This document shows, one piece after another, positions 3,856 through 34,346 of a DNA stretch of 64,000 nucleotides. A model generated the notes under the pieces. The model was not told the DNA's origin. It saw only the letters and a list, made by a program, of their open reading frames with translations, and searched no databases. How positions within the stretch are numbered: position 1 is the first letter of the stretch; each line of letters begins with the position of its first letter. The translations under genes were made by a program, and so were the position numbers. The DNA comes from Candidatus Zambryskiibacteriota bacterium (GTDB taxonomy: Bacteria; Patescibacteriota; Minisyncoccia; Phycocordibacterales; DATDWN01), in the NCBI GenBank assembly GCA_023267045.1, contig JAHFOB010000002.1, positions 2,032-66,031 of the forward strand, read 5' to 3'.

Positions 3856-4638
3856 ATGAAAATTCTTTCTCTGAATACCTGGGGAGCGAGAGCAGGGCAT
3901 GCTGATTTTTTGAATTTTATAAAAAGGCAGAGTAATTCGATTGACGTTTTTTGCTTTCAAGAGATTTGGCATGTAGATTCAGAAAATTTTGAGCATGCAA
4001 AACTTCAAATTGAAGATGCCGTAGCTGGTGGGGTTGTATTAAAAAATATGATGAAAGATTTATTTCCTCAAATTAGCAAAGTCCTTACTGATTACAAAGG
4101 ATTTTTCCGTCCCCACTATGGAACTCACTACGGACTAGCGATATTTGTCAAAAAAGATTTAGATTTAATAGAAGAAGGAGATATTTTTGTATTTAAGGAT
4201 CGAGATTTTGTTCCGACAGGCGATGTAGGTAATCACGCAAGAAATGTTCAATACGCGTGTATACAAACAGAAAAAGGTTTACAAACAATAGTTAATTTCC
4301 ATGGATTATGGAATGGCAAGGGTAAAACAGATACGGAAGATAGACTACTCCAGTCAGATAATATTATTAAATTTCTCAAAACCATAAAAAATCCCTTCAT
4401 TTTGGTTGGGGATTTTAATTTACTGCCAGATACAGAAAGTTTGAAAAAATTTGAAGAGTTTGGTTTGAGAAATCTCATAAAAGAAAATAACATAACTTCA
4501 ACACGAACAAGTTTATATAAAAAAGAACACAAATTTGCTGACTACGTTTTTGTCAGCAAAGGGATTGAAGTAAAAGATTTTAAAATTTTACCAGATGAGA
4601 TTTCGGATCATAATCCAATATTTTTAGAGATAAAATAA
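3856..4638 (+). CDS. Endonuclease/exonuclease/phosphatase (EEP) family protein
   Basis: LSLNTWG...FCFQEIW...VGDFNLLPDTES...SDHNPIFLEI are DNase I-like EEP motifs. The in-frame ATG at 3856 is preferred over the track start 3784, which overlaps the upstream gene. Extended -10 TGGTATAAT lies at 3839-3847. Confidence 0.75.
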   Translation: MKILSLNTWGARAGHADFLNFIKRQSNSIDVFCFQEIWHVDSENFEHAKLQIEDAVAGGVVLKNMMKDLFPQISKVLTDYKGFFRPHYGTHYGLAIFVKKDLDLIEEGDIFVFKDRDFVPTGDVGNHARNVQYACIQTEKGLQTIVNFHGLWNGKGKTDTEDRLLQSDNIIKFLKTIKNPFILVGDFNLLPDTESLKKFEEFGLRNLIKENNITSTRTSLYKKEHKFADYVFVSKGIEVKDFKILPDEISDHNPIFLEIK

Positions 4639-4696
4639 ATCTCACTCTTGTCTTTATTACACAATTGAGCTAAATTGGTTTGAGAAGGAGATATAT

Positions 4697-5056
4697 ATGT
4701 CAATTCCACTTCCAATGCCAAAGAGGGTTCCGGAAACTGGCCTCTACTACCACTACAAGCATGACCCAACTGGCACAGTCAACAACTACGCCTATGAAGT
4801 AGTCGGAGTTGGTTTTCACACAGAGGATAACTGTCGTCCTGGGGAACGGCATTTTCTGGTCTATCGTCCCTTGTACGAATCCAGGGAATATCGATTTTCA
4901 AAGTACGGAGGAATCCCTTGTTTTTACAGTAGGCCACTTGCAATGTGGATGGGAGAAGTGGAAAAGGACGGACAAGTTGTTCCGCGCTTCCAGAAAATCA
5001 CTGACCCAAAGGTTATCCGGAAACTGAAAAGAATCCGGAACAAGATGTACCCATGA
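4697..5056 (+). CDS. DUF1653 domain protein
   Basis: GLYYHYKHDPTGTVNNYAYEVVGVGFHTE resembles the DUF1653 core (YrHYKG..Y.V). Strong SD GAGAAGGAGATATATATG. Confidence 0.55.
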   Translation: MSIPLPMPKRVPETGLYYHYKHDPTGTVNNYAYEVVGVGFHTEDNCRPGERHFLVYRPLYESREYRFSKYGGIPCFYSRPLAMWMGEVEKDGQVVPRFQKITDPKVIRKLKRIRNKMYP

Positions 5057-5062
5057 CCGCCC

Positions 5063-5096
5063 AAGAGCCACCGTGCTTTTGGGTGGCTTTTGTTTA
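5063..5096 (+). terminator. Intrinsic terminator
   Basis: AGCCACC-gtgcttttg-GGTGGCT followed by TTTTGTTT. Confidence 0.5.
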
Positions 5097-5148
5097 TAAA
5101 ATAAAAGAGGATATCAACAGTTTATACACTTATCCACATCTAGAACAT

Positions 5149-5176
5149 TTGACATAAAATTTTTAGGGTATATACT
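5149..5176 (+). promoter_or_regulatory. Sigma70-like promoter (TTGACA, 16 bp, TATACT)
   Basis: TTGACAtaaaatttttagggtaTATACT. No ORF lies downstream. Confidence 0.35.
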
Positions 5177-5182
5177 CTTCGT

Positions 5183-5711
5183 CAGAGAGTTCGAAGGGTA
5201 CTAAAGGCTGTACTGGATTAGAGGATGAGAAGGAATATCTTATTCTTGGGTTAAAAGCCAATAATTCAGTGGGAGAGAAATCTTCCTTCAAAAGGTTCGC
5301 TGAAAGGCGGATCCCAAATACGAACAGTCATACGTATCATTGACCGACCTAATAATTGTGCAGGCAGGGGCAATCTCCGAATCCAAAGAGATTCTTGTCG
5401 GCACAAATGTCGTCTGGTGACGCGGGTAAGGATAAATCGCGTTAGGTTCAAAGCCACCAGAAGGCTAGGGAAGTTGATTCCACATCCTTGGATTACCGAA
5501 GGCGAATTCAATCGTCGAGGTAAAAATGGGTATCTGTGGGTGTTTAACAGAACAGCCACGTAGGTGCGACTGCATCAGGAAGATGGGGAAACTCACACAA
5601 TTTAGGTATGAAAGGTCTAACGACTGATCTGCCCAAATTGGGTGTATAACCCACTTCCTGATCTGAGCTAAGATCTGCGCACTCCGCGACGAAAAATCCG
5701 GGGTGTTTTTT
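5183..5711 (+). ncRNA. Candidate structured ncRNA; RNase P RNA is the leading hypothesis, identity not established
   Basis: About 530 nt with no credible ORF, visibly GC-richer than the flanks, between a consensus promoter and an intrinsic terminator.
- Many stable hairpins: TCTGGTG[ACGCG-GGTAAGGATAAAT-CGCGT...]CACCAGA; GAAGGAA...TTCCTTC; AATCTC...GAGATT.
- RNase P-like motifs: AAAG-GCUGU (5207) can pair with ACAGAA-CAGCC (5546), as in P4/J18-2.
- GGUG...CCACC-AGAAGGCUAGGGAAG resembles the P11/J11-12 consensus (CCACC.GGAGCAAGGCCAAAUAGG). Confidence 0.35.
5677..5711 (+). terminator. Intrinsic terminator (plus-strand)
   Basis: CACTCCG-cgacgaaaaatc-CGGGGTG, 7 bp including a G-U pair, followed by TTTTTT. 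Confidence 0.55.
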
Positions 5712-5727
5712 GTATCAGTTTATTTTT

Positions 5728-6627
5728 TTACTTAAAAAATTCCATAAATTTCATCGGGTCGATTGAGACTCCGTTTAGTCTGATACTCAAATGCAGATGT
5801 GGAGCGTCTGTGTAGCCAGTTTGACCAGAAAGTCCGATAATTTGCCCCGGTAAAACAAGTTCACCAACATTTACTTTTATTTTGGAGAGATGAAGGTAGA
5901 ACGTTTGCAATCCCAATCCGTGGTCGACAACGATCGTTTTGCCATAAGAAATACCAGTCCGAGCAATCCGAACAACTCCACGATTCATGGCCATGACAGG
6001 AGTGCCTTCGCTCGCTCTGAAGTCCGTGCCTTTGTGTGGGATAGTATATGCGCCAGTTTCGCGAGAATATCCATATGGGTCCGTCACGAAAATTTGTGAA
6101 AGAGGGAAGTGAAATGATTCTGTCCAAAAAGCTTTTTTGCCAGTGTACAGGTTGTTCAGTGTCGAATTTTCCGTCGCCAACACTGCGATCAAATTATTCT
6201 GACTTGCAGTTGTATTTCCGCCAAGTTTTTCTGGTATGCCGAGTGGTTCCTCGACTTTTTCTCTTTCTAAAACGGTAATAACTTTTTCTAGCGTTTGTCC
6301 GTTTGTTAATTTTACCTTCAGATTATAGTTCCCGGGTTTTTTACGAAGATCAACACCAATAAAAGCTGTGACTTTTTTGCCTGCCCCGTTGGAAGCTTGC
6401 TTTCCTTCGGGGCTGTACAAAAACACTGGCACATGAATGCCATCAAAAGTTATTTCTTTCACTTCAGAAATCTTTGTTAATCCAACCACGGTAATCATCA
6501 CAGGATCACCCCGCTGTATTTTTTCAGGAAAAGTAATCAGTGTAGGAGAAACAGCCCAAGTTATATTTGGGGTTAAAAAAGTTATACAAAATATCAAAAC
6601 AAAACCAAGCTTGAGCACTTTATTCAT
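5728..6627 (-). CDS. M23 family metallopeptidase (LytM-like) with a signal peptide
   Basis: HKGTDF...HxxxD and YLHLSKI...HLHLSI (HxH) motifs; N-terminal hydrophobic signal. Confidence 0.85.
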   Translation of the reverse strand: MNKVLKLGFVLIFCITFLTPNITWAVSPTLITFPEKIQRGDPVMITVVGLTKISEVKEITFDGIHVPVFLYSPEGKQASNGAGKKVTAFIGVDLRKKPGNYNLKVKLTNGQTLEKVITVLEREKVEEPLGIPEKLGGNTTASQNNLIAVLATENSTLNNLYTGKKAFWTESFHFPLSQIFVTDPYGYSRETGAYTIPHKGTDFRASEGTPVMAMNRGVVRIARTGISYGKTIVVDHGLGLQTFYLHLSKIKVNVGELVLPGQIIGLSGQTGYTDAPHLHLSIRLNGVSIDPMKFMEFFK

Positions 6628-12388: not shown

Positions 12389-12973
12389 ATGTATAGTAAA
12401 CAAATGAATAGCCATACGGATATCTCTGATGAGGAGCTAGCTAGGCTTGTCCAAAATGGGGATAAGGAAAAGTTCGGTGTACTTATGGAGCGTTATAGTA
12501 CAAAGCTTTTTCGTTATGGTAGAAAATTTATTTCTGGTGATGACAATATAGAAGATGTTGTTCAAGACGTATTCATAAAAACATATAAAAATATAAAAAG
12601 TTTTGATACATCGCAAAAATTTTCACCGTGGATTTATCGAATCGCTCACAACACATATATAAATGCTATAAAAAAGAATTCTCTGAACCCGATGTATCTT
12701 TTTGACTTCGACACACTGATTTCACATACAGTTGTTGAGGATCCAATAGTTCGTGAACGTGAACAGAAAGAAATGAAAGAGATTGTGGACAAGGGACTCT
12801 CTCAAATCGAGCCGAAATATCGAGAAATTCTAGTACTCTACTATATCGAAGAGTTAAGTTACAAAGAAATATCCGATATTCTGCACATTCCGATAGGTAC
12901 AGTAGGGGTAAGAATCATGAGAGCCAAGGAAATACTGAAAGGAAAATACAAAGAGATGAAAATAGAAATATAA
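12389..12973 (+). CDS. RNA polymerase sigma factor, ECF (sigma-70 group 4) family
   Basis: Region 2 (DVVQDVFIKTYKNIKSFD...WIYRIAHNTYINAIKK) and region 4 HTH (ELSYKEISDILHIPIGTVGVRIMRAKEIL). Confidence 0.85.
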   Translation: MYSKQMNSHTDISDEELARLVQNGDKEKFGVLMERYSTKLFRYGRKFISGDDNIEDVVQDVFIKTYKNIKSFDTSQKFSPWIYRIAHNTYINAIKKNSLNPMYLFDFDTLISHTVVEDPIVREREQKEMKEIVDKGLSQIEPKYREILVLYYIEELSYKEISDILHIPIGTVGVRIMRAKEILKGKYKEMKIEI

Positions 12974-12976
12974 AAC

Positions 12977-13705
12977 ATGGAACAAGAAAATAACACACAA
13001 AATAATAGTTTCAAACAAAAAATTCTAGAAAAGATAGAAACAGGGGAAGTGAAAATGAGATCAAAAACCTTTTTCTTTCTCAGAGTCTCTTTTCTAGTAG
13101 TTCTTGCTGTCATGGTTTTTGTTTTGTCAGTTCTTCTAGTCAGCTATATTCTGTTTAGTCTGAAAGCTGCTGGGCATTTGTATTTACTTGGTTTTGGTTT
13201 TCGCGGTTTTTATGAATTTTTACTTGTTTTTCCTTGGTTTGTCTTGATCATAGATATTTTACTTCTTGTCTTTTTTGATTGGTTGGTTAAGCGATGGAAG
13301 TTGGGCTATCATAGCCCGATTATTTACTTGTTTTCTGGGTCAGTTGTGCTCATTGTCCTACTTGGTTCTATTGTCGACAGAACTTCGTTTCACCAAAGTA
13401 TGATGTATAGAGCAGAAAATCGTAATTTACCAATGATGAGTAGTTTTTACAACGGTTTACGTAAATCACATAGAGAATACGGCATTTTCCGTGGTTTTGT
13501 CACGGCGATAGACATGAATACTTTCACTATAAAACACAGTGACTATGACATAGACAGTGATGACGGGTTGAGCAGAGTAGTTATGCCAACAAATTTTGAT
13601 GTTAGGGCTATTTTGCAAGTTGGAGATCAAGTTTTTATTGCTGGTGATGTTGTAAACGGCGAGATAAGAGCATACGGTATAAGGAAATTGAATCCAGATG
13701 AATAG
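12977..13705 (+). CDS. putative anti-sigma factor / membrane protein co-transcribed with the ECF sigma
   Basis: Starts 4 nt after the sigma gene stop; N-terminal cytoplasmic segment, four TM helices, C-terminal extracytoplasmic domain. Confidence 0.45.
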   Translation: MEQENNTQNNSFKQKILEKIETGEVKMRSKTFFFLRVSFLVVLAVMVFVLSVLLVSYILFSLKAAGHLYLLGFGFRGFYEFLLVFPWFVLIIDILLLVFFDWLVKRWKLGYHSPIIYLFSGSVVLIVLLGSIVDRTSFHQSMMYRAENRNLPMMSSFYNGLRKSHREYGIFRGFVTAIDMNTFTIKHSDYDIDSDDGLSRVVMPTNFDVRAILQVGDQVFIAGDVVNGEIRAYGIRKLNPDE

Positions 13706-13767: not shown

Positions 13768-14157
13768 ATGAAAGAAAAAAGATATAAAAGAATGAGAAAA
13801 GCCATTATAGCTTCGGCTGGGACCAGTATTGTCACAGGAATGCTTTTTTTTGGGGCAGGAAACACGGCTTTGGCTGAGAGTTCAGATCTTTCTGTAGCAC
13901 CGTATAGTCAAAATACCACTGCAAAAGGTATGCACATGATGCATCGTTGGAATTCTGTCGGTAGAGCTGGTAGTTTAGCAGTACATTTAGGCCTCGATCC
14001 AGAAAAAGTTAAAACTGAGCTAAAAGATGGTAAGACTCTAAAGCAAATTTTACAAGAGAACGGCATAGTGCCAGGTCAACTACAAAAAGCTTTTGAAAGC
14101 AAGAAAAGCTACAACAAAAGAATGTGGAAAAAAATGAATGGAACTGGTACACTATAA
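13768..14157 (+). CDS. secreted hypothetical protein
   Basis: Basic N-terminus plus hydrophobic signal (ASAGTSIVTGMLFFGAGNTALA). Confidence 0.5.
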   Translation: MKEKRYKRMRKAIIASAGTSIVTGMLFFGAGNTALAESSDLSVAPYSQNTTAKGMHMMHRWNSVGRAGSLAVHLGLDPEKVKTELKDGKTLKQILQENGIVPGQLQKAFESKKSYNKRMWKKMNGTGTL

Positions 14158-14189: not shown

Positions 14190-14684
14190 ATGGAAGGACA
14201 AAAGAAAAGTAGATCGGTAGTATGGGTAGTTATCGCGCTTGTCGTTGCTGTAGCGACATACGGAGCTTTTAAGTATGTAAAAAGAAATAATACTATTGTT
14301 GATAATACAATCAATTTGCCACAAGCAACACCTACACCTACTCCGACTCCTGTCCCAGCAACACCAGCCCCAAAACCAATTTCATCTACATATAAAAATG
14401 GCAACTATTCAGCCAGTGGGTTTTATAACTCACCAGGTGGCACAGAACAAATAAATGTTAGTGTCACTTTGAAAGATGGTGTTATCACAGATGCCACGGT
14501 CACATCTCTAGCTCGTAGATCAGAAGCAAGGTTTTATCAAGGGGAGTTTATTTCTGGATTTAGTTCGTATGTTGTTGGTAAAAGTATAGATAATGTTGTT
14601 TTGTCAAAAGTTTCTGGTTCGTCACTTACACCAAGGGGTTGGAATAATGCGATAGCACAGATAAAAGTTCAGGCAAAGGCATAA
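14190..14684 (+). CDS. FMN-binding domain (NqrC/RnfG-like) membrane-anchored protein
   Basis: TM anchor, Pro/Thr linker, then YKNGNYSASGFYNSPGG...VTLKDGVITDATV...VSGSSLTPRGWNNAI. Resembles the FMN_bind domain with an S/TGAT-type flavinylation site. Confidence 0.65.
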   Translation: MEGQKKSRSVVWVVIALVVAVATYGAFKYVKRNNTIVDNTINLPQATPTPTPTPVPATPAPKPISSTYKNGNYSASGFYNSPGGTEQINVSVTLKDGVITDATVTSLARRSEARFYQGEFISGFSSYVVGKSIDNVVLSKVSGSSLTPRGWNNAIAQIKVQAKA

Positions 14685-14728
14685 AGAATAAATCTCTTAC
14701 TCTCGACGAGATTTATTCTTCAAAAAAT

Positions 14729-15592
14729 ATGACAAAATTTGAATTTGAGGCTATTGGGACTTCGTGGGTAATAGATATAGACAAAGATCTCTCGGATAAA
14801 GAGAAGGAAAATCTTTTGCTAAAAATAAAAGATAGAATAGATATTTTTGATATCGCATATTCGCGGTTCCGCGAAGATTCGCTTGTAACAAAAATGTCAA
14901 AAGAAGCGGGGGAATTTACTTTGCCGGATGATGCGGACAAAATGATTTCGCTTTATAAAAAAATGTATGACGTAACAGGTGGTTTGGTTACGCCACTTAT
15001 TGGTGATGTTTTGTCTGATGCTGGTTATGACGCAGACTATTCTCTTCAGCCGAAATCATTAAAAAAACCAAAAAGTTGGGATGAAGTTATAAAATGGCAA
15101 AACCCAAAACTAAAATTAAATTATCCGACGATTTTGGATTTTGGTGCAGGTGGTAAGGGTTATTTGGTAGATATTGTCTCTGAAATATTGGAAGAAAATG
15201 GAATAGATTCGTATTGTGTGGATGCCAGTGGTGACATGAAACGTAGAGGTCAAGAGGGATTACGTGTTGGTTTAGAACATCCAGAAGAGACAAATAAAGT
15301 TATTGGGGTTGTTACAATTTCAAATCAAAGTTTGTGTGGTTCTGCAGGCAATCGTCGAAAATGGGCCGATTTTCATCACATTATAAATCCAAAAACTCTT
15401 TCTTCACCAAAAAATATTTTGGCAGTTTGGATAGTTGCTGAAAACACATTACTCGCTGATCTTTTAACCACAGGATTATTTTTTGTCGAGCCGGAAATTT
15501 TGAAAAAACATTTTAATTTTGAATACATTATTTTGAAAAATGATTATTCTATAGAGAAATCAGGTGGATTAGAAGTGGAATTATTTACGTAA
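14729..15592 (+). CDS. apbE: FAD:protein FMN transferase (ApbE family)
   Basis: TGGLVTPLIGD...ILDFGAGGKGYLVD...CGSAGNRRKW...HIINPKT are ApbE signature regions. Confidence 0.8.
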   Translation: MTKFEFEAIGTSWVIDIDKDLSDKEKENLLLKIKDRIDIFDIAYSRFREDSLVTKMSKEAGEFTLPDDADKMISLYKKMYDVTGGLVTPLIGDVLSDAGYDADYSLQPKSLKKPKSWDEVIKWQNPKLKLNYPTILDFGAGGKGYLVDIVSEILEENGIDSYCVDASGDMKRRGQEGLRVGLEHPEETNKVIGVVTISNQSLCGSAGNRRKWADFHHIINPKTLSSPKNILAVWIVAENTLLADLLTTGLFFVEPEILKKHFNFEYIILKNDYSIEKSGGLEVELFT

Positions 15593-15611
15593 GAAAGTGG
15601 TAATATATAGG

Positions 15612-15720
15612 ATGAATCCCGTTAGAAATATCGGAGATTCAGTGTTACCACGGTCAGGTTAACTTTAATCATTAACATAAGGAGTTATTATTAAATATAT
15701 GATCTCCTATTTCTAACGGG
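15612..15720 (+). repeat. L-element copy 1: ~107-nt terminal-inverted-repeat element abutting the start codon of 15721
   Basis: ATGA|ATCCCGTTAGAAATATCGGAGAT...ATCTCCTATTTCTAACGGG|ATGAAG; -10-like TAATATATAG immediately upstream. Confidence 0.85.
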
Positions 15721-17253
15721 ATGAAGTTCATAGATAATTTTCTAAACGGCATAACCATGTACAAATTGGTTTTGTACGGACTTTTGGTTTTGGCCGTGTT
15801 TTCTATAGCTCTAAGTTTTGCAGGAATTTTATCGTACAGTCCTCAAAGTTTGTCCAGTTCTTTTATTATTTTGTTAATAGTTTGTTACATAACAAACTAT
15901 CTTTTTTCCAAAGTATTTAGAGTTTCTGTAAATAGTGAATCATATTTCATAACCAGTCTGATATTGTTTTTGATATTGTTTCCTGTAGGTAGTTTATCTC
16001 AACTATGGGTTTCTATTATTGTTGCCACTATAGCAATGGCTTCAAAATATCTTTTGGCAATAAATCAAAAGCATATTTTCAATCCTACCGCTATCGCAAT
16101 TTTTATCATTGGTTTTTTCGGTTATGGTTCGGCCATCTGGTGGATTGGTAGTTCCTATATGATTGTGCCAGTTGTCATTCTCGGTTTTCTAGTTATACGC
16201 AAAGTTCGCCGTTTTGCTTTGTTTTCTTCTTTTCTTCTGGCGGGTGTTGCCAGTATTTCTGTCTTTAGTTTATATCACGGTTTCAACCTAGTTGAAGTTT
16301 TGAAACAAACTTTTCTTTCAGGGCCGATACTTTTCTTCGGCAGTATTATGTTGACAGAACCACTAACGACTCCGCCAAGTGTTGGTCTTCAGGTAGCGTA
16401 TGGCGTTTTAGTCGGAATATTTTTTGGTGCAGAGTTTCAATTTGGCCCATTATATTCTTCACCAGCTCTAGCACTACTTATCGGTAATTTGTTTTCATAT
16501 ATTGTTAGTCCAAGAGCTCATTTAACATTGACTCTGCTTCGCAAAAATAAACTATCCCATGACGTCTATGACTTTGAGTGGAAAATATCTGGTCATAAAA
16601 CAGACAGAAAAATTGGCTTTATGGCGGGTCAGTATATGGAATGGACATTAGCTCACAAACATCCAGATATAAGAGGCAATCGGCGATTTTTTACTCTAGC
16701 TTCCTCTCCGACAGAAGAAAACTTACATCTTGGTATAAAGTTCTACAAAGACTCTAGTAGCTTCAAAAAAGCTCTAAATTCCATGGCTTTGGGTAGTAAA
16801 ATCGTGGCATCGCAAATAGCTGGGTCATTTACACTACCAAAAGACTCAAGCAAGAAGATGGTTTTTATTGCTGGTGGTATAGGTATTACACCGTTCAGAA
16901 GTATTATCAAATATCTGCTCGATAAAAAAGAGGATAGGGAGGCTGTACTTTTCTTTTCAAACAAAACAACAGAAGATATAGTTTACAAAGATATTTTTGA
17001 CGAAGCAGAAAATAAACTTGGGATAAAAACTATTTATGTCATAAACGATATGCAAGGCGGTGTTGAAACTTCAAAAATAAAAGCTGGAATTGTTACAAAA
17101 GAAATGATCGTAGCTGAAGCAACGGATTATAAAGATAGAATTTTCTATATTTCTGGTTCGCACGCGATGGTTGAATCTTTCAAAAACGTTTTACACAAAA
17201 TGGGTGTAAAAAGATCCCAAATCAAAACCGATTTTTTTCCGGGCTTTATGTAG
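15721..17253 (+). CDS. membrane oxidoreductase: polytopic N-terminal domain fused to a ferredoxin-NADP-reductase-type FAD/NAD(P)-binding domain
   Basis: C-terminal RRFFTLASSP (RxYS-type FAD motif), GGIGITPF (NAD-binding) and YISGSHAMV. N-terminal ~280 aa has 8-9 TM helices, with HIFNPTAIA reminiscent of NqrB/RnfD. Confidence 0.6.
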   Translation: MKFIDNFLNGITMYKLVLYGLLVLAVFSIALSFAGILSYSPQSLSSSFIILLIVCYITNYLFSKVFRVSVNSESYFITSLILFLILFPVGSLSQLWVSIIVATIAMASKYLLAINQKHIFNPTAIAIFIIGFFGYGSAIWWIGSSYMIVPVVILGFLVIRKVRRFALFSSFLLAGVASISVFSLYHGFNLVEVLKQTFLSGPILFFGSIMLTEPLTTPPSVGLQVAYGVLVGIFFGAEFQFGPLYSSPALALLIGNLFSYIVSPRAHLTLTLLRKNKLSHDVYDFEWKISGHKTDRKIGFMAGQYMEWTLAHKHPDIRGNRRFFTLASSPTEENLHLGIKFYKDSSSFKKALNSMALGSKIVASQIAGSFTLPKDSSKKMVFIAGGIGITPFRSIIKYLLDKKEDREAVLFFSNKTTEDIVYKDIFDEAENKLGIKTIYVINDMQGGVETSKIKAGIVTKEMIVAEATDYKDRIFYISGSHAMVESFKNVLHKMGVKRSQIKTDFFPGFM

Positions 17254-17540
17254 AAATAAATATTGACTCTATCACACTACTGTATTCTCGTGATGTTTTT
17301 CTTTTTTCTACAATAATATCTGTAAATAGTGAAATATGACTAAAATAGTCGCTTTTTTAGCGATTTTTCGTCTTTTTCTCGTTTCCTATCAATTTTTTTA
17401 TTAATAATTAGCAAAAATACATGATTTTGTGGTGGTCAAGTCTTGCACTTAAAATACTTGAGTGTTATTTTATTGTTAAGAGTGTGTCGTTTTTTTGATT
17501 TAAGTTTTAATAATAAATTTATAAATTAGTTTTTTATAAC

Positions 17541-20528
17541 ATGAAAAAAATATTTTCTTATTTGACTGTCCTATCAATGGTTATTTCCACTATAGGGGCT
17601 TTTCCGCTAACAGCAAGTGCACATCAGAATAAATTTGACTGGACACCACACTCCGTTTTTCATAATGGTCACGAACACGGAGATCAAGGTGATGATGAAA
17701 AAGGTGATAAAGATGATAATGAAGATCATGATGACCATGAGTCCAAAGGTTCAATCACAGTTTGTAAAATAATAATCAAACCAGATGGTACGACAGTAAC
17801 TGACGGAAGTGAATTATCGTCACCAACAAGTGTTACTGTCCCTGGGGGAACAGTCCCAAACAACTCTCACGGTTATGCTCTCTCTGTAACTACTTTCACT
17901 ACTCCTCTCTCAATGACAGACGGCTTTCTTGATTCCAGTGGGGAGGAAAATGACGCTCAATGTGTCACATATAGCGATTTGAAAATCGGAAGCTACTATT
18001 ACGGACAGGAAACAGCAACTGATCCTTCTCTATGGGATTCTACTATGTACAATGATCAGTTTTCTAACACAGTAAATGATGTTACTGATTTCTATTCATA
18101 TAATACTGACGGTACTCAAAACGGTTACAATTCCGACGGTGTTATTACACTTACAAAAAATAAACCAAATAGAACTCTTATTGTTCTAAACAAACTAAAA
18201 ACCCCACCCACCTCAACTATTGTTGCTACGAAAATCGTCTGTGATAATGAGTCCGACTTGCCAAACTGGGGTTCCGGCGGTCCTGATATAACAGATACAA
18301 CTGCTAGCACTTTCATATCTACCCACCCAAATTGTCATTTAGCATCTGATTGGCAATTCCAGTGGGTTAAGGATTCTGACTCAAATACAAACCCCGGAGA
18401 TAATGTACTGACTCCAGCTAGTTCTCCTTGGACAACAATGCCATCTACAAACGGTTCTGGACAAACTTCAGTCACGGTTCCAGCAGGTTCCAAAATATGG
18501 GTTCGTGAAGTTTTGAAAGACGGTTATGTTCCATTTACTTTCAACACAAATAATCAGACTAACGTAGATAACGTTTCCGCTGAAATTTACTGTAACACCG
18601 ACGTTTTGAATTATGATAACTGGGATTGGATTGATCCAGTCATAGCGGGACAGACTTACCAATGCGTTGCTTTCAACGCTCTAAAACAGGCTCCTCCGAC
18701 TCTAGATATACAAAGCTGTGGTGTTGTACAGTCACCATATCCACCTTCTGGTGAAATGTTATCTCCTACGACATACGACTATTCGGGCCCAAACGACCCA
18801 GGTGATTCTACATCAGGAAATCAAGTTGATCACAAATGGGTTCATGTACACCAAACTCCTGTAGTTTGGGATATGATAACTCCTACAGACACAGCTTATC
18901 TAGTTCCAAGTATTGATCACGATCCTTTCCCAGCCGAATCTCACGAAGCAACACTTTTCGGATCTGACAGTCCAACTGGTCCTTGGGTAGCCGGAATAGA
19001 AACAACAACTTTCCCTCTCGGTCCTACAAGTTGGATTTCTGATAACGACACAACTTCATGGAAATTTGGACAAGCATACAGATATATTTCTGCTACAGCC
19101 GGAGGAACATTGCAAAACGATGGTGATGCAGAGATTGACGCCGTTTGCAGTCCAGAAGTCATTCCTCCACCTATTTGTGACCCAGGGCAAGAGTTAATCC
19201 AGAATGGCTCGTTTGAAACACCAGCAGTTCCTTTGGCAAGTTGGGATATCTTTCCTTCAGGTGCGATTTCGCTTGATTGGGTTGTGTCATGGTTTGGTGG
19301 ATCAACAACCTTTGGTTCTGGAACAAGACCGACTGTTGCAAACCTTGAAATCCAGACTAATGGGCTAAATAGTTCAATTGCTTCAAATGGCACACAGTTT
19401 GCCGAACTTGATACTGATTGGGATGGACCTTCAGGATCACTAAACGGTGAACCAGCTTCTGTGGCAATATCTCAAAATATTACTACTGTTCCTGGAACAG
19501 ATTATAAATTGACTTATGATTTTTCACCTAGACCAAATACTGGTTCTTCAGAAAATAAACTGGAGGTTATTTGGGGTGGAGTACTTGGTGATACGGTTGG
19601 GCCTATAGTCGGAGGGGTTAGTACGATATGGTCATCACATACTCTAAACTTTACTGCAACAAGTACAAACACATTTATTACATTCCGTGATGCTGGGACG
19701 CCAGAGGATTCGCTCGGTACTTTGCTTGATAATGTAAGTCTACGATGTGTACCACCAGAAAATATTCCGGAATGTGATGAAGGTGAGCATCTAAATATAG
19801 ACAACGAATGCATAAGTGATGATGTTCCACCACCTACAGATGTTTGTCCAAATATAGACGGTAACCAGTCAACAGTTCCTGAAGGTAAACATCTAAATAA
19901 TGATGGCCAGTGTGTTCCTAACGGAGATGATAACGATGATGAGGATGAAAATACACCAACTGATGTTTGTCCAAATATAGACGGTAACCAGTCAGAAGTT
20001 CCAAGTGGAAAACATAAAAACGACGACGGTCAGTGCGTAGATAACACAACAACAGAATCTACAAATGACGAAAATAATGGCGGTGGCGGTGGAGGAGGTG
20101 GTGGCGGTAATGGTCCGGGTGGAAACAATGGCCCTATAAACTTCGGATTTGTTAATGGTGGAAATGGCGGTGGAGGCGGTAATGGTGCGCCACAGGGACA
20201 AGTTCTTGGTGCATCTTGCACACCTTATCTTGATTCATACATTGGTTTTGGAAAGAAAAATAATCCAGATCAGGTTAGGAAACTTCAAGAGTTCCTTAAT
20301 GAATATCTAGGTCTTCATATACCAGTTACAGGGTTCTTCGGGCCACTTACATATAACGCCGTAAAACAATTCCAGATACAAGAAAACATAGATATTATTG
20401 GTCCATGGTCAAAACTTGGGTTGCTCAAGGACAAAGAAGCAACCGGATATGTTTACAAGACAACAAAGAGAAAAATAAATCTGATAAAATGTTCTGAACT
20501 AGACATACCAATACCACAGTTACCTTAA
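17541..20528 (+). CDS. large secreted/surface protein (995 aa) with a C-terminal peptidoglycan-binding domain
   Basis: Signal peptide; His/Asp-rich stretch (HEHGDQGDDEKGDKDDNEDHDDHE); triplicated DVCPNIDGNQS.VP.GKH.N.DGQCV modules; poly-Gly tracts; C-terminal VRKLQEFLNEYLG...GFFGPLTYNAVKQFQ matches PG_binding_1. Confidence 0.6.
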   Translation: MKKIFSYLTVLSMVISTIGAFPLTASAHQNKFDWTPHSVFHNGHEHGDQGDDEKGDKDDNEDHDDHESKGSITVCKIIIKPDGTTVTDGSELSSPTSVTVPGGTVPNNSHGYALSVTTFTTPLSMTDGFLDSSGEENDAQCVTYSDLKIGSYYYGQETATDPSLWDSTMYNDQFSNTVNDVTDFYSYNTDGTQNGYNSDGVITLTKNKPNRTLIVLNKLKTPPTSTIVATKIVCDNESDLPNWGSGGPDITDTTASTFISTHPNCHLASDWQFQWVKDSDSNTNPGDNVLTPASSPWTTMPSTNGSGQTSVTVPAGSKIWVREVLKDGYVPFTFNTNNQTNVDNVSAEIYCNTDVLNYDNWDWIDPVIAGQTYQCVAFNALKQAPPTLDIQSCGVVQSPYPPSGEMLSPTTYDYSGPNDPGDSTSGNQVDHKWVHVHQTPVVWDMITPTDTAYLVPSIDHDPFPAESHEATLFGSDSPTGPWVAGIETTTFPLGPTSWISDNDTTSWKFGQAYRYISATAGGTLQNDGDAEIDAVCSPEVIPPPICDPGQELIQNGSFETPAVPLASWDIFPSGAISLDWVVSWFGGSTTFGSGTRPTVANLEIQTNGLNSSIASNGTQFAELDTDWDGPSGSLNGEPASVAISQNITTVPGTDYKLTYDFSPRPNTGSSENKLEVIWGGVLGDTVGPIVGGVSTIWSSHTLNFTATSTNTFITFRDAGTPEDSLGTLLDNVSLRCVPPENIPECDEGEHLNIDNECISDDVPPPTDVCPNIDGNQSTVPEGKHLNNDGQCVPNGDDNDDEDENTPTDVCPNIDGNQSEVPSGKHKNDDGQCVDNTTTESTNDENNGGGGGGGGGGNGPGGNNGPINFGFVNGGNGGGGGNGAPQGQVLGASCTPYLDSYIGFGKKNNPDQVRKLQEFLNEYLGLHIPVTGFFGPLTYNAVKQFQIQENIDIIGPWSKLGLLKDKEATGYVYKTTKRKINLIKCSELDIPIPQLP

Positions 20529-21634: not shown

Positions 21635-22192
21635 ATGAATGAACAAAAACTTGAAATCGCCGTGTTTGGGGGAGGATGTTTTTGGTGTACAGAGGCGGTT
21701 TTCAAAATGCTTAGGGGTGTAGCTACTGTTTTGCCTGGCTATGCTGGTGGTAGTATGGAAAATCCTAGTTATGAAAAAGTTAGTGGTGGCAATACTGGTC
21801 ATGCAGAGTGCGTCAAACTAGAATTTGATCCAAGAGAAATTTCATATAAGGATTTACTTACAGTTTTTTTTGGTTCCCATGATCCCACGACATTAAACAG
21901 ACAAGGTAACGATATTGGTACTCAATATCGCTCGGCTATTTTTTATACTACAGAAGATCAAAAAACTACAGCTCTGGATTTCATAAAAGACCTAAATCAA
22001 TCTAACGAAGATGGCAAGACAATAGTTACAGAAGTTGTGCCACTTGACAAGTTTTTTGTTGCAGAGAATTATCACAAAGATTATTATGAGAGAAATAAAG
22101 ATGCCGCATATTGTGAAATAATTATAAATCCAAAATTGGAAAAAGTTCAGAAAAAGTTTGCTAATTTATTAAAAGATCACCCAAAAAACTAA
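21635..22192 (+). CDS. msrA: peptide methionine sulfoxide reductase A
   Basis: AVFGGGCFWCTEAVF...GYAGG...NPSYEKVSGGNTGHAECV...GNDIGTQYRSAIFY. Confidence 0.9.
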   Translation: MNEQKLEIAVFGGGCFWCTEAVFKMLRGVATVLPGYAGGSMENPSYEKVSGGNTGHAECVKLEFDPREISYKDLLTVFFGSHDPTTLNRQGNDIGTQYRSAIFYTTEDQKTTALDFIKDLNQSNEDGKTIVTEVVPLDKFFVAENYHKDYYERNKDAAYCEIIINPKLEKVQKKFANLLKDHPKN

Positions 22193-22197
22193 AAAAT

Positions 22198-22596
22198 ATG
22201 GAAAAAATGGACATAAATGAAGAAGAATTGAAGAAAAAATTAACTCCCGAGGAGTATGCAGTTTTGAGAGGAAAGGGGACAGAAGCACCTTTTTCTGGAA
22301 AACTTTTACATGACAAACGTAACGGCATGTATACCTGCAAAGTTTGCGGGAACGAACTTTTTTCTTCGGATGCTAAGTTTGATTCTGGCACTGGATGGCC
22401 AAGCTTCGATAAAGCCATATCTGGAAGCATCGTAGAGACTCCAGACAACGATATGGGTATGCATAGGACAGAGATAACATGTGCTCGTTGTGGGTCGCAC
22501 CTAGGTCATGTTTTCAATGATGGACCTACTGATACTGGAATGCGATATTGTCTAAATTCAGTCTGTTTGGACCTCGAAGAAAAACCTAAAAATTAA
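22198..22596 (+). CDS. msrB: peptide methionine sulfoxide reductase B
   Basis: CxxC...CxxC zinc site and GWPSF...RTEITCARCGSHLGHVFNDGP...RYCLNS. Confidence 0.9.
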   Translation: MEKMDINEEELKKKLTPEEYAVLRGKGTEAPFSGKLLHDKRNGMYTCKVCGNELFSSDAKFDSGTGWPSFDKAISGSIVETPDNDMGMHRTEITCARCGSHLGHVFNDGPTDTGMRYCLNSVCLDLEEKPKN

Positions 22597-22597
22597 C

Positions 22598-23626
22598 ATG
22601 GATAAAGATTTACTTCAAAAATATTTCTTCGTTGGACTTCTACTTATAGTTTCAGTATTGGTTGGTTTCATTTTTCTTCCTTTTCTGAGTATTTTAGTCT
22701 TATCTTCAATTTTTGGTGTGATTTTAACCCCTCTTCATATAAAAATATCAAAATTTTTTGGTGGCAGAAAAGGTATATCGGCTTTTATTGTAGTTTTGCT
22801 TTTTTGTATAGTTGTTATAATTCCAATGTTTTTCATTTTTATGCAGGTTTTGGGTGAATCAAAAGATCTTTACAGTCAATTGGCAAATCACGATAGTATT
22901 GGATATATACAAAAAATAACTCTAGCCATAGAAAAACCGATACAAAAAATTTATCCGACATTTTCTATAGACCTGAACCAATTCGCCAGTTTTGGGGCAA
23001 ATTGGATTGCTCTGCACTTGAGTTCTATATTATCTAGTGCACTTTCAGTTCTTACCAGCATTGTTTTTATATTTATCTCACTATTCTTTTTCCTTAAAGA
23101 TGGTAGCAAGTTTAAAAAAATGCTAGTTAGCCTTTCGCCACTTCAAGATAAATACGACGAACAAATTTTTGATAAGCTTAAGCAAACAATTACATCCACA
23201 GTACGCGGGGTTTTGCTCGTAGCTATTATTCAAGGAGTTTTGGCTGGTCTAGGGCTTAAAATATTTCACGTTCCACAAGCAATACTGTGGGGGTGTATTG
23301 CTGCCGTAGCATCTGTTATACCTTTCGGCACACTTTCCGTTTATCTACTTTCTATCGCATATATGTATATAACGGGCAATATTCCGTACACTATAGGACT
23401 TGTTTTGTGGACAACTGTTGTTATAGGTCTTGTTGATAATTTTCTTGGTCCATATCTATATTCCAGGGGAGTTGAAATCCATCAACTTGTAATGCTTTTT
23501 GCTATTCTTGGTGGGCTTATAGTTTTTGGCCCGGTAGGATTTATTTTTGGCCCTATTGTTCTGTCTTTGTTTTTTACACTTATAAACATCTATCAGGGTG
23601 TCATTTTGAAAAAAACTTTGTTATAA
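22598..23626 (+). CDS. AI-2E family transporter (UPF0118/PerM-like)
   Basis: About 340 aa, 7-8 TM helices, typical size and topology. The 3' end overlaps the -10 box of the next transcription unit. Confidence 0.55.
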   Translation: MDKDLLQKYFFVGLLLIVSVLVGFIFLPFLSILVLSSIFGVILTPLHIKISKFFGGRKGISAFIVVLLFCIVVIIPMFFIFMQVLGESKDLYSQLANHDSIGYIQKITLAIEKPIQKIYPTFSIDLNQFASFGANWIALHLSSILSSALSVLTSIVFIFISLFFFLKDGSKFKKMLVSLSPLQDKYDEQIFDKLKQTITSTVRGVLLVAIIQGVLAGLGLKIFHVPQAILWGCIAAVASVIPFGTLSVYLLSIAYMYITGNIPYTIGLVLWTTVVIGLVDNFLGPYLYSRGVEIHQLVMLFAILGGLIVFGPVGFIFGPIVLSLFFTLINIYQGVILKKTLL

Positions 23627-23633
23627 TGAGACC

Positions 23634-23740
23634 ATGAATCCCGTTAGAGATTTCAGTTTATTGAAAATTCTTCGGGTAAAATAACATTATTAAATAATTT
23701 GTATATTCAGTAGTTAAAAGCTACTGGTATCTCTAACGGG
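23634..23740 (+). repeat. L-element copy 2 (divergent core) abutting the start codon of 23741
   Basis: ATGA|ATCCCGTTAGAGAT...ATCTCTAACGGG|ATGAAA; TATAAT box at 23622-23627. Confidence 0.8.
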
Positions 23741-24244
23741 ATGAAAACTCCAAAAATATTTGAATCAATTTATCAATTCTTGTTTTCTAATGTAAAGTTT
23801 TCTGTTTTCTGGTTAGTTGTTAGAATTTATTTAGGATGGGAGTGGTTACATGCGGGGTATGAAAAAGTTATAAATCCTATGTGGGTTGGTAAAACTGCGG
23901 GGGGAGCATTAACAGGTTTTATAAATGGCGCTTTAGCAAAAACCGCAGGAGCTCATCCTGATGTGTCTATGTGGTACGCTTGGTTTTTGAAGCACGCAGT
24001 TTTAACATACGTCGTTACTTGGTCAAATTTGGTAGCGTATGGTGAACTTCTTGTTGGTATTGGACTTATTTTGGGTGCTCTAACTTTCCTATCTGCATTT
24101 TTCGGATTCTTTATGAATTTGAATTATCTTTTAGCTGGTACTGTTAGTACGAACCCAGTCCTCTTAATTTTAGCCATTCTTATAATGCTTGCTCACAAAA
24201 CAGCAGGGTATATTGGACTTGATCGCTGGCTTGTTAAGAGTTAG
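23741..24244 (+). CDS. DoxX family membrane protein
   Basis: Four TM helices, RIYLGWEWLHAGYEK..., DoxX-like size and pattern. Confidence 0.55.
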   Translation: MKTPKIFESIYQFLFSNVKFSVFWLVVRIYLGWEWLHAGYEKVINPMWVGKTAGGALTGFINGALAKTAGAHPDVSMWYAWFLKHAVLTYVVTWSNLVAYGELLVGIGLILGALTFLSAFFGFFMNLNYLLAGTVSTNPVLLILAILIMLAHKTAGYIGLDRWLVKS

Positions 24245-30814: not shown

Positions 30815-30921
30815 ATGGATCCCGTTAGAAATATCGGAGATCAATGTTACGATTATCAGGTTAATTTTAATTTTATAATAGGTCGTCATAGCAGAATGTA
30901 TGATCTCCTATTTCTAACGGG
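30815..30921 (+). repeat. L-element copy 3 abutting the start codon of dedA (30922)
   Basis: ATGG|ATCCCGTTAGAAATATCGGAGAT...ATCTCCTATTTCTAACGGG|ATGGAT. The duplicated hexamer ATGGAT matches this gene's own start; TACAAT box lies upstream. Confidence 0.85.
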
Positions 30922-31539
30922 ATGGATTATTTGATAAATAGCATAACTATACTTGGATATTTTGGCTATGGGCTTTTATTTATAATCATATTTTTTGAGT
31001 CTTTTCCACTAACATTTTTCTTGCCAGGAGACAGTTTGCTTTTTACATCTGGGTTTCTGGCTTCACAAGGGCACTTCAATCTTGCTCTACTTATCGCCAC
31101 ACTTTTTCTAGCAAGTATCGCCGGCTATCTTTTCAGCTATGCAATGGGGGAGAAACTTCGACAAATTATTTTGAAAAGTAACGACAAGTATTGGTTCAAA
31201 AAAAAGCACTTGGACTACACAGAAAAATTTTATGCAAAGTACGGCACAAAAACAGTAATTATCGGTCGCTTTGTTCCCATAGTCCGTTCTTTTAGTCCGA
31301 CATTGGCTGGAGCTGTAGATATGAACTTCAAAAAATTTCTAAAACTGACTATGCTTGGCGGATTTCTCTGGACGGTAGGAATAACTTCTGCCGGTTTTTA
31401 TTTGGGTAAAGCTATTCCTAGCGCTCATTTATATTTAACACCGATAATTCTCGGTATTATTTTTGTGTCACTTTTGCCAGCAATCATAGAATATATTCGT
31501 GATCAGGTTGCCAAAGGTAAAATAAATCCAAAAGTATAA
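30922..31539 (+). CDS. DedA family membrane protein
   Basis: LPGDSLLF...GRFVPIVRSFSPTLAG, DedA/SNARE-associated pattern. Confidence 0.8.
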   Translation: MDYLINSITILGYFGYGLLFIIIFFESFPLTFFLPGDSLLFTSGFLASQGHFNLALLIATLFLASIAGYLFSYAMGEKLRQIILKSNDKYWFKKKHLDYTEKFYAKYGTKTVIIGRFVPIVRSFSPTLAGAVDMNFKKFLKLTMLGGFLWTVGITSAGFYLGKAIPSAHLYLTPIILGIIFVSLLPAIIEYIRDQVAKGKINPKV

Positions 31540-34239: not shown

Positions 34240-34346
34240 ATGAGTCCCGTTAGAAATAGCGGAGATCAATATTACCAGAGTCAGATAAGTTTAATAATTA
34301 AATAAGGAGTAATAGTTTTATACTAGATCTCCTATTTCTAAACGGG
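34240..34346 (+). repeat. L-element copy 4 abutting the start codon of the FKBP gene (34347)
   Basis: ATGA|GTCCCGTTAGAAATAGCGGAGAT...AGATCTCCTATTTCTAAACGGG|ATGAAA; TTTACA-17-TATAAT promoter directly upstream. Confidence 0.85.

Follow-up and report, generated by a model that had tools for sequence, protein, structure and literature searches.

The locus, in a reduced genome of the Patescibacteria type, consists of three consecutive plus-strand open reading frames, encoding an FMN-binding protein, an ApbE-family transferase and a 510-aa reductase (Table 1), within the 64-kb stretch of DNA that was analysed as a whole (the window). An earlier interpretation made from the letters of the DNA (the sequence-only reading) had reported these frames together with the motifs HIFNPTAIA, RRFFTLASSP, GGIGITPF and VSGSSLTP, and translation of the window recovered all of them. 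The domain assignments of that reading for all three proteins were borne out by Pfam, profile and structure comparisons. In the Pfam search that it had proposed, ApbE and NAD_binding_1 scored above their cut-offs and NQR2_RnfD_RnfE and FMN_bind below theirs; independent profile and structural evidence supported both of the sub-threshold assignments.

Table 1. Features of the gene trio and its surroundings, in positions of the window
Feature	Position	Strand	Description
ECF-type sigma factor	12389-12973	+	194 aa; Sigma70_r2 and Sigma70_r4_2 above Pfam cut-offs; TIGR02937 sigma70-ECF 104 bits
Polytopic membrane protein, anti-sigma-like position	12977-13705	+	242 aa; C-terminal domain weakly DUF5666 (18.3 bits, below cut-off)
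Secreted protein p129	13768-14157	+	129 aa; signal-peptide-like N-terminus and helical motif of ~45 aa
FMN-binding (NqrC/RnfG-like) gene	14190-14684	+	164 aa; N-terminal membrane anchor, Pro/Thr-rich linker, FMN_bind domain
Perfect 13-bp hairpin, no U-tract	14684-14720	+	between FMN-binding gene and apbE; -13.5 kcal/mol, z = -5.6
apbE	14729-15592	+	ApbE-family FAD:protein FMN transferase, 287 aa
Extended -10-like box TGGTAATAT	15598-15606	+	upstream of reductase, within 15598-15616
Upstream copy of duplicated start ATG	15612-15614	+	left duplication TGAA 15613-15616
L-element	15617-15721	+	105-nt MITE-like palindromic insertion, T-CCCGTTAGAAATA...TATTTCTAACGGG-A
Reductase gene	15721-17253	+	510 aa; membrane domain and FNR-type domain
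NqrB/RnfD-like membrane domain	15721-16515	+	aa 1-265, ~10 membrane helices
FNR/Fre/NqrF-type FAD (flavin) and NAD(P)H-binding domain	16516-17253	+	aa 266-510; RRFFTLASSP, GGIGITPF
Terminator-like hairpin, then T-run	17347-17365	+	94 nt past reductase stop

Alignments with homologues of the reductase reach back to the first residue of the 510-aa frame, so its true start is the one given in Table 1, and the public gene calls, at 487 or 498 aa, are too short. The membrane domain matched NQR2_RnfD_RnfE (PF03116) at 25.1 bits (E=1.4e-5; cut-off 27.7), and a profile of 11 membrane-domain sequences searched against the PDB matched only RnfD (8ahx_D, E=4.5e-6) and NqrB. With an AlphaFold model of the domain as query (pLDDT 90, pTM 0.88), the top 15 Foldseek matches were RnfD/NqrB chains (probability 1.00, TMq 0.56-0.71); 7xk3 and 8a1t, also matched by this domain, are NQR structures. 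The profile and the model agree in predicting an RnfD/NqrB fold, in line with the polytopic domain originally recognised from HIFNPTAIA. An unrelated transporter-like fold was rejected, as the next structural neighbours, urea transporters, were only remote matches (E>0.2). Between the NPA motif (aa 121-123) and the WW motif (aa 140-141) there are about 20 aa, compared with 67 aa in NqrB, where T236 lies, and no SGAT-like motif was found in this loop of the reductase; the membrane domain has lost the NqrB/RnfD flavinylation loop. The charge distribution over the modelled helices puts the C-terminal domain inside the cell together with three basic loops (K64/R67, R160-R164 and R271-K274), and puts aa 133-144, the site of the missing loop, outside.

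The C-terminal half of the reductase matched NAD_binding_1 (PF00175) at residues 382-487 with 57.3 bits (cut-off 22). Sequence matches in the PDB support an FNR/NqrF/Fre-like domain, and Foldseek returned FNR-family proteins, including NqrF and SpNOX, which together substantiate the FAD/NAD(P)H half previously identified from RRFFTLASSP and GGIGITPF. The homologue search yielded 5,816 proteins at E<=0.001, some of them matched through the NAD-binding domain alone; the best 120 of the 5,816 keep the full fusion and are mostly from Patescibacteria where source names are given.

For the 164-aa protein, the single-sequence match to FMN_bind (PF04205) reached 18.6 bits (cut-off 22), a precomputed PF04205 match was present in 5 of 96 homologues, and many of these homologues carry the source name "FMN-binding". 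A profile of 45 homologues matched the solved FMN-binding domain 8p2a (E=0.013), with VSGSSLT (nt 14613-14633) aligned opposite VSGATYT, so that Ser145 is the counterpart of the T in that motif. Ser145 is invariant among the 45 aligned homologues, VSGSSLT is present in 77 of the 96, and the residue at this position is Ser in 93 and Thr in 2 of them. VSGSSLT has the form of an [S/T]GA[S/T]-like flavinylation motif with a terminal hydroxyl residue, the middle Ala usually being Ser, and within the window a SGAT-like motif occurs in a real open reading frame only here. The predicted flavinylation site is Ser145 in SGSS; the motif singled out by the sequence-only reading does hold an invariant flavinylatable residue, and this residue is Ser145 rather than the Thr two positions later.

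The 287-aa ApbE is intact. It matched PF02424 with 127.2 bits (cut-off 25.6), and its alignment to the crystal construct of E. coli ApbE (4xgw) spans residues 3-264, with residue 3 opposite residue 17 and with conservation of GKGY, the His of HHIINPKT (SHVIDPQT in E. coli ApbE) and the AD...T segment. Only 8 residues of the protein precede the first strand of the fold; there is no start codon further upstream in frame, and no signal peptide, lipobox or membrane anchor was found in the protein. Among its 120 closest homologues (286-310 aa), none has a hydrophobic N-terminus, the maximum 15-residue hydropathy within the first 45 aa being at most 1.31. Export signals were also absent from the ApbE proteins of the related loci L003-L008 (short ApbE), L011 and the high-GC L141, and in L141 the FMN-binding partner is a lipoprotein, yet its ApbE has no export signal.

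Co-occurrence of the three genes was assessed in 15 related loci, which come from Parcubacteria, Saccharibacteria, Gottesmanbacteria and Chloroflexia and from one high-GC contig that is probably actinobacterial. ApbE lies no more than 6 kb from the reductase gene in 14 of the 15 and FMN_bind likewise in 14; both do so in 13, which have the complete trio, so the check proposed with the original annotation gave a positive result. In a Parcubacteria subclade, three genes precede the trio in a fixed order: one for an ECF sigma factor, one for a membrane protein and one for a small secreted protein. At four loci (L001, L002, L017 and L019) the sigma gene lies at the equivalent position, an orthologue of the 242-aa membrane protein follows it directly (243 aa in L017, 242 aa in L019), and p129 is kept between the anti-sigma-like and FMN-binding genes. 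The helical motif of p129 also occurs as 2-5 repeats in other proteins (DUF2680 / HTH-like). By its position, the membrane protein would be anti-sigma-like, and the sigma factor, as an ECF factor of the envelope-stress type, is the probable regulator of the trio in this subclade. The neighbourhood from 10.5 to 24.6 kb further contains MerR, OMP decarboxylase, a DUF642/PG-binding protein, CAP, MsrA, MsrB, AI-2E and DoxX.

The reductase gene also carries a palindromic element at its start codon. The 4-bp direct repeat TGAA stands on both sides of the L-element (15613-16 and 15722-25), the element's final base is the A of the reductase ATG, and its hairpin has a folding energy of -35.1 kcal/mol (z = -4.3). 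Five copies of this palindrome, each about 101-103 nt long, stop exactly at the ATG of a gene, and 10 arm matches were found where 1.76 were expected, which establishes the five-copy start-codon repeat, including the copy at the reductase gene, as real. The element is absent from orthologous loci and matches no Rfam family. It is a widespread MITE-like palindrome whose 4-bp target duplication rebuilds the start codon. Orthologues of the reductase have leaderless-type promoters, with TGnTAnAAT 6-7 nt ahead of the ATG, and 15598-15616 probably represents the leaderless promoter and start that the gene had originally. The best explanation is that the reductase gene has a leaderless-type promoter of its own besides the probable ECF-sigma control, and that here a MITE-like insertion broke into the promoter-start arrangement and restored the start codon. 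The L-element may belong to a MITE family that prefers the start codons of leaderless genes and rebuilds them. Elsewhere in the transcription unit, the hairpin ahead of apbE may act in the processing or stability of the mRNA or as an attenuator, and the hairpin past the reductase likely marks the end of the unit.

Méheust 2021 (PMC8238504) and Huang 2024 (PMC10979944) describe the NQR/RNF-like flavinylation-associated electron-transfer system, in which one protein joins a membrane domain of the NqrB/RnfD type to an NAD-binding domain and the same gene cluster encodes ApbE and an FMN-binding protein resembling NqrC/RnfG; it is defined by PF03116-like and PF00175 domains in one protein, clustered with ApbE and/or FMN_bind, and is found mainly in Actinobacteria and CPR bacteria. 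Both domains are present in the 510-aa protein, and apbE and the FMN-binding gene lie directly upstream. The architecture shows no difference in kind from the published system, and the taxa shared are CPR / Patescibacteria, Actinobacteria and Chloroflexi such as Ktedonobacter. The flavinylation Thr of NqrB/RnfD is not conserved in the membrane subunit here, as Huang 2024 (PMC10979944) reports for these systems. We consider the trio a member of this published system, acting as a conduit from NAD(P)H to an outer covalent FMN, with a probability of roughly 0.6, and it would probably form a two-subunit membrane complex encoded with its own maturation enzyme. A one-way conduit from NAD(P)H to an extracytoplasmic flavin has already been hypothesised for the class (PMC8238504, PMC10979944); the conduit function proposed from the sequence fits that hypothesis. 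The reading of the trio was essentially right but not new, as this class of minimal electron conduit was known before. An unrelated fold, the lack of a flavinylatable residue or a lack of co-occurrence had been named as grounds for abandoning it, and none of these was found. The label "flavin trafficking" is looser than the evidence, which fits electron transfer through a covalently bound flavin better. The accessible text of Méheust 2021 and Huang 2024 yielded no description of an ApbE without an export signal, a modified Ser in an SGSS motif, an ECF sigma block linked to the trio in a Parcubacteria subclade, leaderless-type promoters of reductase orthologues or a MITE at the reductase start codon.

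In the proposed mechanism, ApbE would take FMN from FAD and attach it to Ser145 of the NqrC/RnfG-like protein anchored in the membrane. The cytoplasmic FNR/Fre-type domain of the 510-aa protein would oxidise NAD(P)H, and the electrons would cross the membrane through one or more flavins held non-covalently in the NqrB/RnfD-like domain, arrive on the outer side at the small subunit's covalent FMN and pass onward to some extracytoplasmic acceptor. We infer flavinylation itself, the non-covalent cofactor of the membrane domain, the direction of the electrons, the acceptor and the route of ApbE to its target, and the same holds for flavinylation, cofactors, donor and acceptor in every member of the class. 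No candidate acceptor gene is encoded next to the trio. The suggestion that periplasmic Msr systems might be reduced is unsupported, as the nearby MsrA and MsrB lack export signals and are of cytoplasmic types.

The trio shares with Na+-NQR and Rnf an RnfD/NqrB fold, an NqrC/RnfG-type FMN_bind protein with an ApbE-type motif and an NqrF-like FAD/NADH domain. It differs in having two polypeptides instead of six, and no six-subunit RnfABCDGE or NqrABCDEF operon is present at 10.5-24.6 kb: neither the Fe-S carriers NqrD/E or RnfA/E nor NqrA or RnfB/C were found among the neighbours there. The NqrF-like part lacks the 2Fe-2S domain of Na+-NQR, the NqrB-like part lacks the covalent FMN site, and the proposed electron flow is one-way, in comparison with a semicircular flow in Na+-NQR and Rnf. 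As in the Listeria EET system (FmnB / PplA / Ndh2 / EetAB / DmkA), an ApbE-family enzyme would flavinylate a membrane-tethered extracytoplasmic FMN_bind protein, which in Listeria is thought to pass electrons to outside acceptors, as proposed here. In Listeria the membrane step runs through Ndh2, EetA/B and a derivative of demethylmenaquinone, whereas the trio has an NAD(P)H-binding RnfD-like fusion and no quinone genes; FmnB is a lipoprotein, unlike the ApbE of the trio. NOX and MsrQ-like systems also fuse a cytoplasmic FNR-type NAD(P)H domain to a membrane electron-transfer domain, and SpNOX (8qt6) is among the structural matches noted above, but their membrane part is a six-helix di-haem ferric-reductase domain and that of the trio is RnfD/NqrB-like and presumably flavin-based.

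The orientation of the small subunit bears directly on this mechanism. Its homologues have a hydrophobic N-terminal anchor (median KD 2.92) flanked by 2.19 K/R on the N side and 1.80 on the C side, a weak N-in bias that is not decisive for topology. This weak bias leaves some room for an arrangement in which the FMN-binding domain faces the cytoplasm (N-out / C-in) and its FMN relays electrons from the FNR-type domain through the RnfD-like domain to a membrane-soluble or membrane-embedded acceptor such as a scavenged quinone. The lack of a signal peptide in ApbE across the clade speaks for it: if ApbE is cytoplasmic, the FMN-binding domain should be cytoplasmic too. NqrB of Na+-NQR bears the last flavins and the quinone site, and such an arrangement would be closer to the distal half of Na+-NQR than to an outward conduit. 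To our knowledge, however, Patescibacteria generally lack quinone biosynthesis. A lipobox in 8 of the 96 homologues of the small subunit indicates that the FMN-binding domain is extracytoplasmic at least in those 8, and the Pro/Thr/Ser-rich linker past the anchor is typical of extracytoplasmic tethers. The slot of the lost NqrB loop is predicted by the model on the outer face, where Huang 2024 (PMC10979944) docks the small subunit. The FMN-binding domain looks extracytoplasmic, and we regard the cytoplasm-facing arrangement as unlikely.

Somewhat less likely again is a role in flavin acquisition or trafficking, in which the RnfD-like domain, with a fold like that of urea transporters, would be a flavin channel or binding site, the Fre-like domain would use NAD(P)H to reduce free flavin and ApbE would be Ftp-like, together supplying flavins to a flavin-auxotrophic cell or recycling them. 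NCBIfam models gave flavohemoprotein and Fre-type matches to the C-terminal domain, with Fre / LuxG scores nearly equal to the flavohemoprotein score; in T. pallidum, ApbE / Ftp proteins are reported to act as FAD pyrophosphatases as well, and the structural neighbours after RnfD/NqrB are urea transporters. The strictly conserved Ser and the strict linkage to FMN_bind point instead to a covalent redox cofactor, the urea transporter matches are far behind those to RnfD/NqrB, and no flavin transporter or ECF-RibU gene adjoins the trio. An ancestral Rnf/Nqr operon might instead have decayed in this reduced genome and left the trio behind without a function, as the presence of RnfD-, RnfG- and NqrF-like parts without RnfA/E/B/C-type genes nearby might suggest. 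This is highly improbable and effectively ruled out by conservation, given intact reading frames, conserved gene order, a fused reductase that keeps 38-61% identity and many invariant residues in several phyla, and an ApbE that, at 58-73% identity to its homologues, is the best conserved protein of the three.

For an outward conduit, ApbE itself is difficult to place. Characterised extracytosolic ApbEs are secreted or lipidated, and the signal or lipoprotein peptide expected of them in NQR, RNF and EET systems was not found here, a poor fit with flavinylation outside the cell. Throughout this clade of NQR/RNF-like systems ApbE has no export signal, yet the domain that it would modify looks to be tethered outside the membrane. 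We suggest, tentatively and as less than an even chance, either that FMN is attached to Ser145 in the cytoplasm, with later insertion or export of the flavinylated, signal-anchored protein, or that the accepted extracytosolic topology of the class is wrong. If either reading is true, maturation of the conduit in Patescibacteria would be unlike that of every characterised ApbE system.

The trio consists of three consecutive plus-strand genes, and every peptide string quoted for them in the sequence-only reading is present in their translations. Pfam placed ApbE (127.2 bits) and, in the 510-aa protein, NAD_binding_1 (57.3 bits) above their cut-offs, while NQR2_RnfD_RnfE in the same protein (25.1 bits against a cut-off of 27.7) and FMN_bind in the 164-aa protein (18.6 bits against 22) fell below theirs. 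As these last two scores were sub-threshold, both calls were tested independently, with profiles and, for the membrane domain, with a structural model. Single-sequence searches of the PDB returned only noise for the small protein and only FNR-type matches for the reductase; profiles were needed. A membrane-domain profile, built from residues 1-270 of the window protein and of its counterparts at ten related loci, found no matches in the whole PDB other than RnfD (8ahx_D, E=4.5e-6) and chains of NqrB. In addition, when an AlphaFold model of this domain (pLDDT 90, pTM 0.88) was compared with the PDB using Foldseek, the 15 best matches were all RnfD or NqrB chains, with a probability of 1.00 and TMq up to 0.71, and the next were urea transporters at E>0.2. 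The C-terminal half of the reductase is an FNR/Fre/NqrF-type domain. The small protein has 96 homologues, many with the source name "FMN-binding", and a profile from 45 of them matched 8p2a, a solved FMN-binding domain, in an alignment that pairs VSGSSLT with VSGATYT. Taken together, these results support the domains originally proposed, namely an FMN-binding protein, an ApbE and an RnfD/NqrB-like membrane domain fused to an FNR-type domain.

Coordinates of the trio, its neighbours and the L-element copies in the window
Feature	Coordinates	Strand	Gene start	Basis or remark
ECF sigma factor	12389-12973	+
Polytopic membrane protein, 242 aa	12977-13705	+		anti-sigma position
Secreted helical protein, ~120-130 aa (p129 in the window)	13768-14157	+
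FMN-binding protein, 164 aa	14190-14684	+		ORF translation
ApbE, 287 aa	14729-15592	+		ORF translation
L-element, reductase	15617-15721		15721
Reductase, 510 aa	15721-17253	+		ORF translation
MsrA	21635-22192			catalytic domain at N-terminus, no signal peptide
MsrB	22198-22596			catalytic domain at N-terminus, no signal peptide
L-element, DoxD/DoxX	23639-23741		23741
L-element, DedA/VTT	30820-30922		30922
L-element, anchored FKBP	34245-34346		34347
L-element, YceG/MltG	63534-63636	-	63534

Méheust et al. 2021 (PMC8238504) define NQR/RNF-like systems as flavinylation gene clusters in which a PF00175 NAD-binding domain is fused to an NqrB/RnfD-like membrane domain. Huang et al. 2024 (PMC10979944) presented a model of the Ktedonobacter complex, in which the flavinylation site of the small subunit is docked close to a pocket of the membrane subunit for non-covalent flavin, and reported that the class does not conserve the flavinylation site of NqrB/RnfD. 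The window's trio shows every sequence-level feature of this class, and its reductase has lost the NqrB loop, with about 20 aa between the NPA and WW motifs compared to 67 aa in NqrB. We put the probability that the trio is a member of the class at about nine in ten. The reading of the trio from the sequence as a minimal electron conduit from NADH to a flavin on the outside is largely right; the trio is real, but the class is already published and the locus is nothing new in kind. No experimentally characterised member is reported in the consulted passages of PMC8238504 and PMC10979944.

The class is abundant, as a search with the reductase yielded 5,816 proteins at E<=0.001, although the NAD-binding domain alone accounts for the match in part of them. 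The full fusion architecture is common to the best 120 of these 5,816, among which the named sources are mostly Patescibacteria (Parcubacteria/Minisyncoccia, Levybacteria), and a genome scan for the reductase added Saccharibacteria, Gottesmanbacteria and Chloroflexia. Across 15 loci with complete flanks, HMMs of the three families detected an ApbE within 6 kb of the reductase in 14, an FMN-binding protein in 14 and the whole trio in 13, which shows co-occurrence among relatives.

The window ApbE is intact, as its GKGY and AD..T segments and the His of HHIINPKT align with E. coli ApbE, and the search for an S/TGAT-like flavinylation motif in the small protein yielded V-S-G-[S/A]-S-L-T with an invariant Ser145 in the 45-homologue alignment. 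VSGSSLT occurs in 77 of the 96 homologues, and the predicted modified position is a serine in 93. Model helices and loop charges place the basic loops of the reductase (K64/R67, R160-R164 and R271-K274) on the same side as the FNR domain, with aa 133-144, where the lost flavinylation loop would sit, on the opposite side. NQR structures have established that NqrB binds riboflavin and FMN. In the proposed route, NAD(P)H would reduce the flavin of the cytoplasmic domain of the reductase, electrons would cross the membrane via one or more flavins held non-covalently in the RnfD-like domain, by analogy with NqrB, and they would then reach covalent FMN on Ser145 outside the membrane and pass to some further acceptor. 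We regard this route as a whole as moderately probable.

The extracytosolic ApbEs characterised so far are either secreted or lipidated. The window ApbE lacks a signal peptide, a lipobox and a membrane anchor. Its fold's first strand is preceded by 8 residues, and there is no in-frame start upstream of its open reading frame. All 120 of its closest homologues are 286-310 aa long, and none has a hydrophobic N-terminus. A shorter type of ApbE, found beside the reductase at loci of Chloroflexia, Gottesmanbacteria and Saccharibacteria, likewise has no export signal, and in a high-GC locus (L141) an ApbE without an export signal is accompanied by an FMN-binding partner that is a lipoprotein. Flavinylation of the small subunit may precede its export, or ApbE may get outside by an unconventional route. 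The small subunit may also face inward, although 8 of the 96 homologues of the FMN-binding protein are lipoproteins, indicating export of the domain in these proteins at least. Méheust et al. filtered ApbEs by secretion or lipidation (PMC8238504), and the searched passages of PMC8238504 and PMC10979944 do not mention a missing ApbE export signal for this class.

Three conserved genes, for the sigma factor, the membrane protein and the secreted protein, precede the trio in the window and in four related loci (L001, L002, L017 and L019), while more distant loci keep the trio only; this ECF sigma block suggests that the trio may be under envelope-stress control. No evidence was found for the window's secreted protein, p129, as a redox partner: it has no Cys/His/Met-rich conserved motif and is similar only to helical DUF2680/HTH-like repeats. 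Its C-terminal helical motif of about 45 aa (LGLDPEKVKTELKDGKTLKQILQENGI...) is present in 2-5 copies in larger proteins scoring as DUF2680/HTH-like repeats. Between the FMN-binding gene and apbE lies a hairpin with a perfect 13-bp stem and an 11-nt loop (14684-14720; -13.5 kcal/mol, z = -5.6), which has no U-tract and is therefore not a canonical terminator; another hairpin, terminator-like, lies 3' of the reductase gene. Downstream of the reductase, the window (21635-24244) and the related locus L018 (7673-10904) share the gene order MsrA, MsrB, AI-2E-family transporter and DoxD/DoxX membrane protein; this stretch lies directly 3' of the reductase in L018 and, in the window, after a DUF642/peptidoglycan-binding wall protein and a CAP protein. 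This stretch may be an oxidative-stress neighbourhood or synteny only. The suggestion of a periplasmic Msr system as acceptor fails, as MsrA and MsrB lack signal peptides in the window and their L018 orthologues also begin at the catalytic domain; they are therefore not the outside acceptor. A large secreted DUF642 and peptidoglycan-binding protein and a CAP-family protein are found 3' of the reductase both in the window (17541-20528) and in L017 (7839-12233), the former protein having 995 aa in the window and 1464 aa, with PA14, in L017.

The true start of the reductase is 15721, because the alignments with its homologues begin at the first residue of the 510-aa reading frame. Public gene calls (locus L015; ENA/NCBI records) start 12 or 23 codons late, giving 498 or 487 aa (window 15721-15792), probably because the palindromic L-element at the start codon removes any recognisable upstream signal. 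The element is absent from orthologous reductase loci, where apbE and the reductase gene are spaced by just 18-47 nt, and a role as a conserved cis-regulator of the trio was rejected on that ground. The ATG of orthologous reductase genes is preceded at 6-7 nt by an extended -10 box, TGnTAnAAT, with no Shine-Dalgarno sequence (the box was seen in L001, L002, L006, L011, L017, L018 and L019 at about 5975-6003), which suggests that their mRNAs are leaderless. The window retains a -10-like box just upstream of the second, duplicated ATGAA (15598-15614), and its other four L-element-bearing genes have the same box arrangement upstream of the duplicated ATG. Before insertion, the reductase site would read ...TAATATATAGGATGAAGTTC..., with TGAA then duplicated. 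In L017, a 59% identical relative, the same apbE-reductase gap holds an IS110-family (Transposase_20) gene (4431-5720).

As first noticed from the sequence, five copies of the L-element are present in the window. Each ends precisely at the start codon (ATG) of a gene for an envelope or membrane protein, the reductase gene included. The element is an 89-119-nt palindrome with termini Y-CCCGTTAGA...TCTAACGGG-R, and a metagenome scan found it on at least 120 contigs (L021-L140). Among the matches listed, the terminal bases (Y...R) are complementary in 124 of 126 copies, and the flanks form a perfect 4-bp direct repeat in 79 of the 126, with 3 of 4 positions matching in 24 more; these repeats are mostly TGAA/TTCA and TAAA/TTTA. 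When empty sites were reconstructed by deleting the element and one repeat, and only ORFs with 60 or more codons were counted, the junction codon was the ORF's first start codon in 31 of 125 sites among the matches listed, compared to 6.4% of control RTGRA sites. The element is best read as MITE-like, with a TNNA target duplication and enrichment at gene starts, its terminal purine and the duplicated TG rebuilding an ATG or GTG start codon. Its RNA would fold into a hairpin of -35.1 kcal/mol (z = -4.3), and a known RNA family was rejected, as no Rfam model reached its gathering threshold and the matches below were all generic, miRNA-type hairpins. A LOOT RNA (Rfam RF03000) lies elsewhere in the window (58225-58339, plus strand; 80.7 bits against a gathering score of 46.4). 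No transposase partner of the element was found, an ECF sigma/anti-sigma pair being what lies between two inverted copies in L039, and a literature search for a start-codon MITE in CPR returned nothing relevant.

The Patescibacteria (CPR) have very small genomes and are not known to possess a respiratory chain. A two-protein conduit from NAD(P)H to the outside could be one of the few ways in which CPR re-oxidise NAD(P)H, or could alternatively serve redox chemistry on the CPR envelope or at the host interface. The locus sharpens the question of how an ApbE without a signal peptide matures an exported target, and the MITE that rebuilds start codons is a separate curiosity that concerns both mobile DNA and the translation of leaderless mRNAs in CPR.
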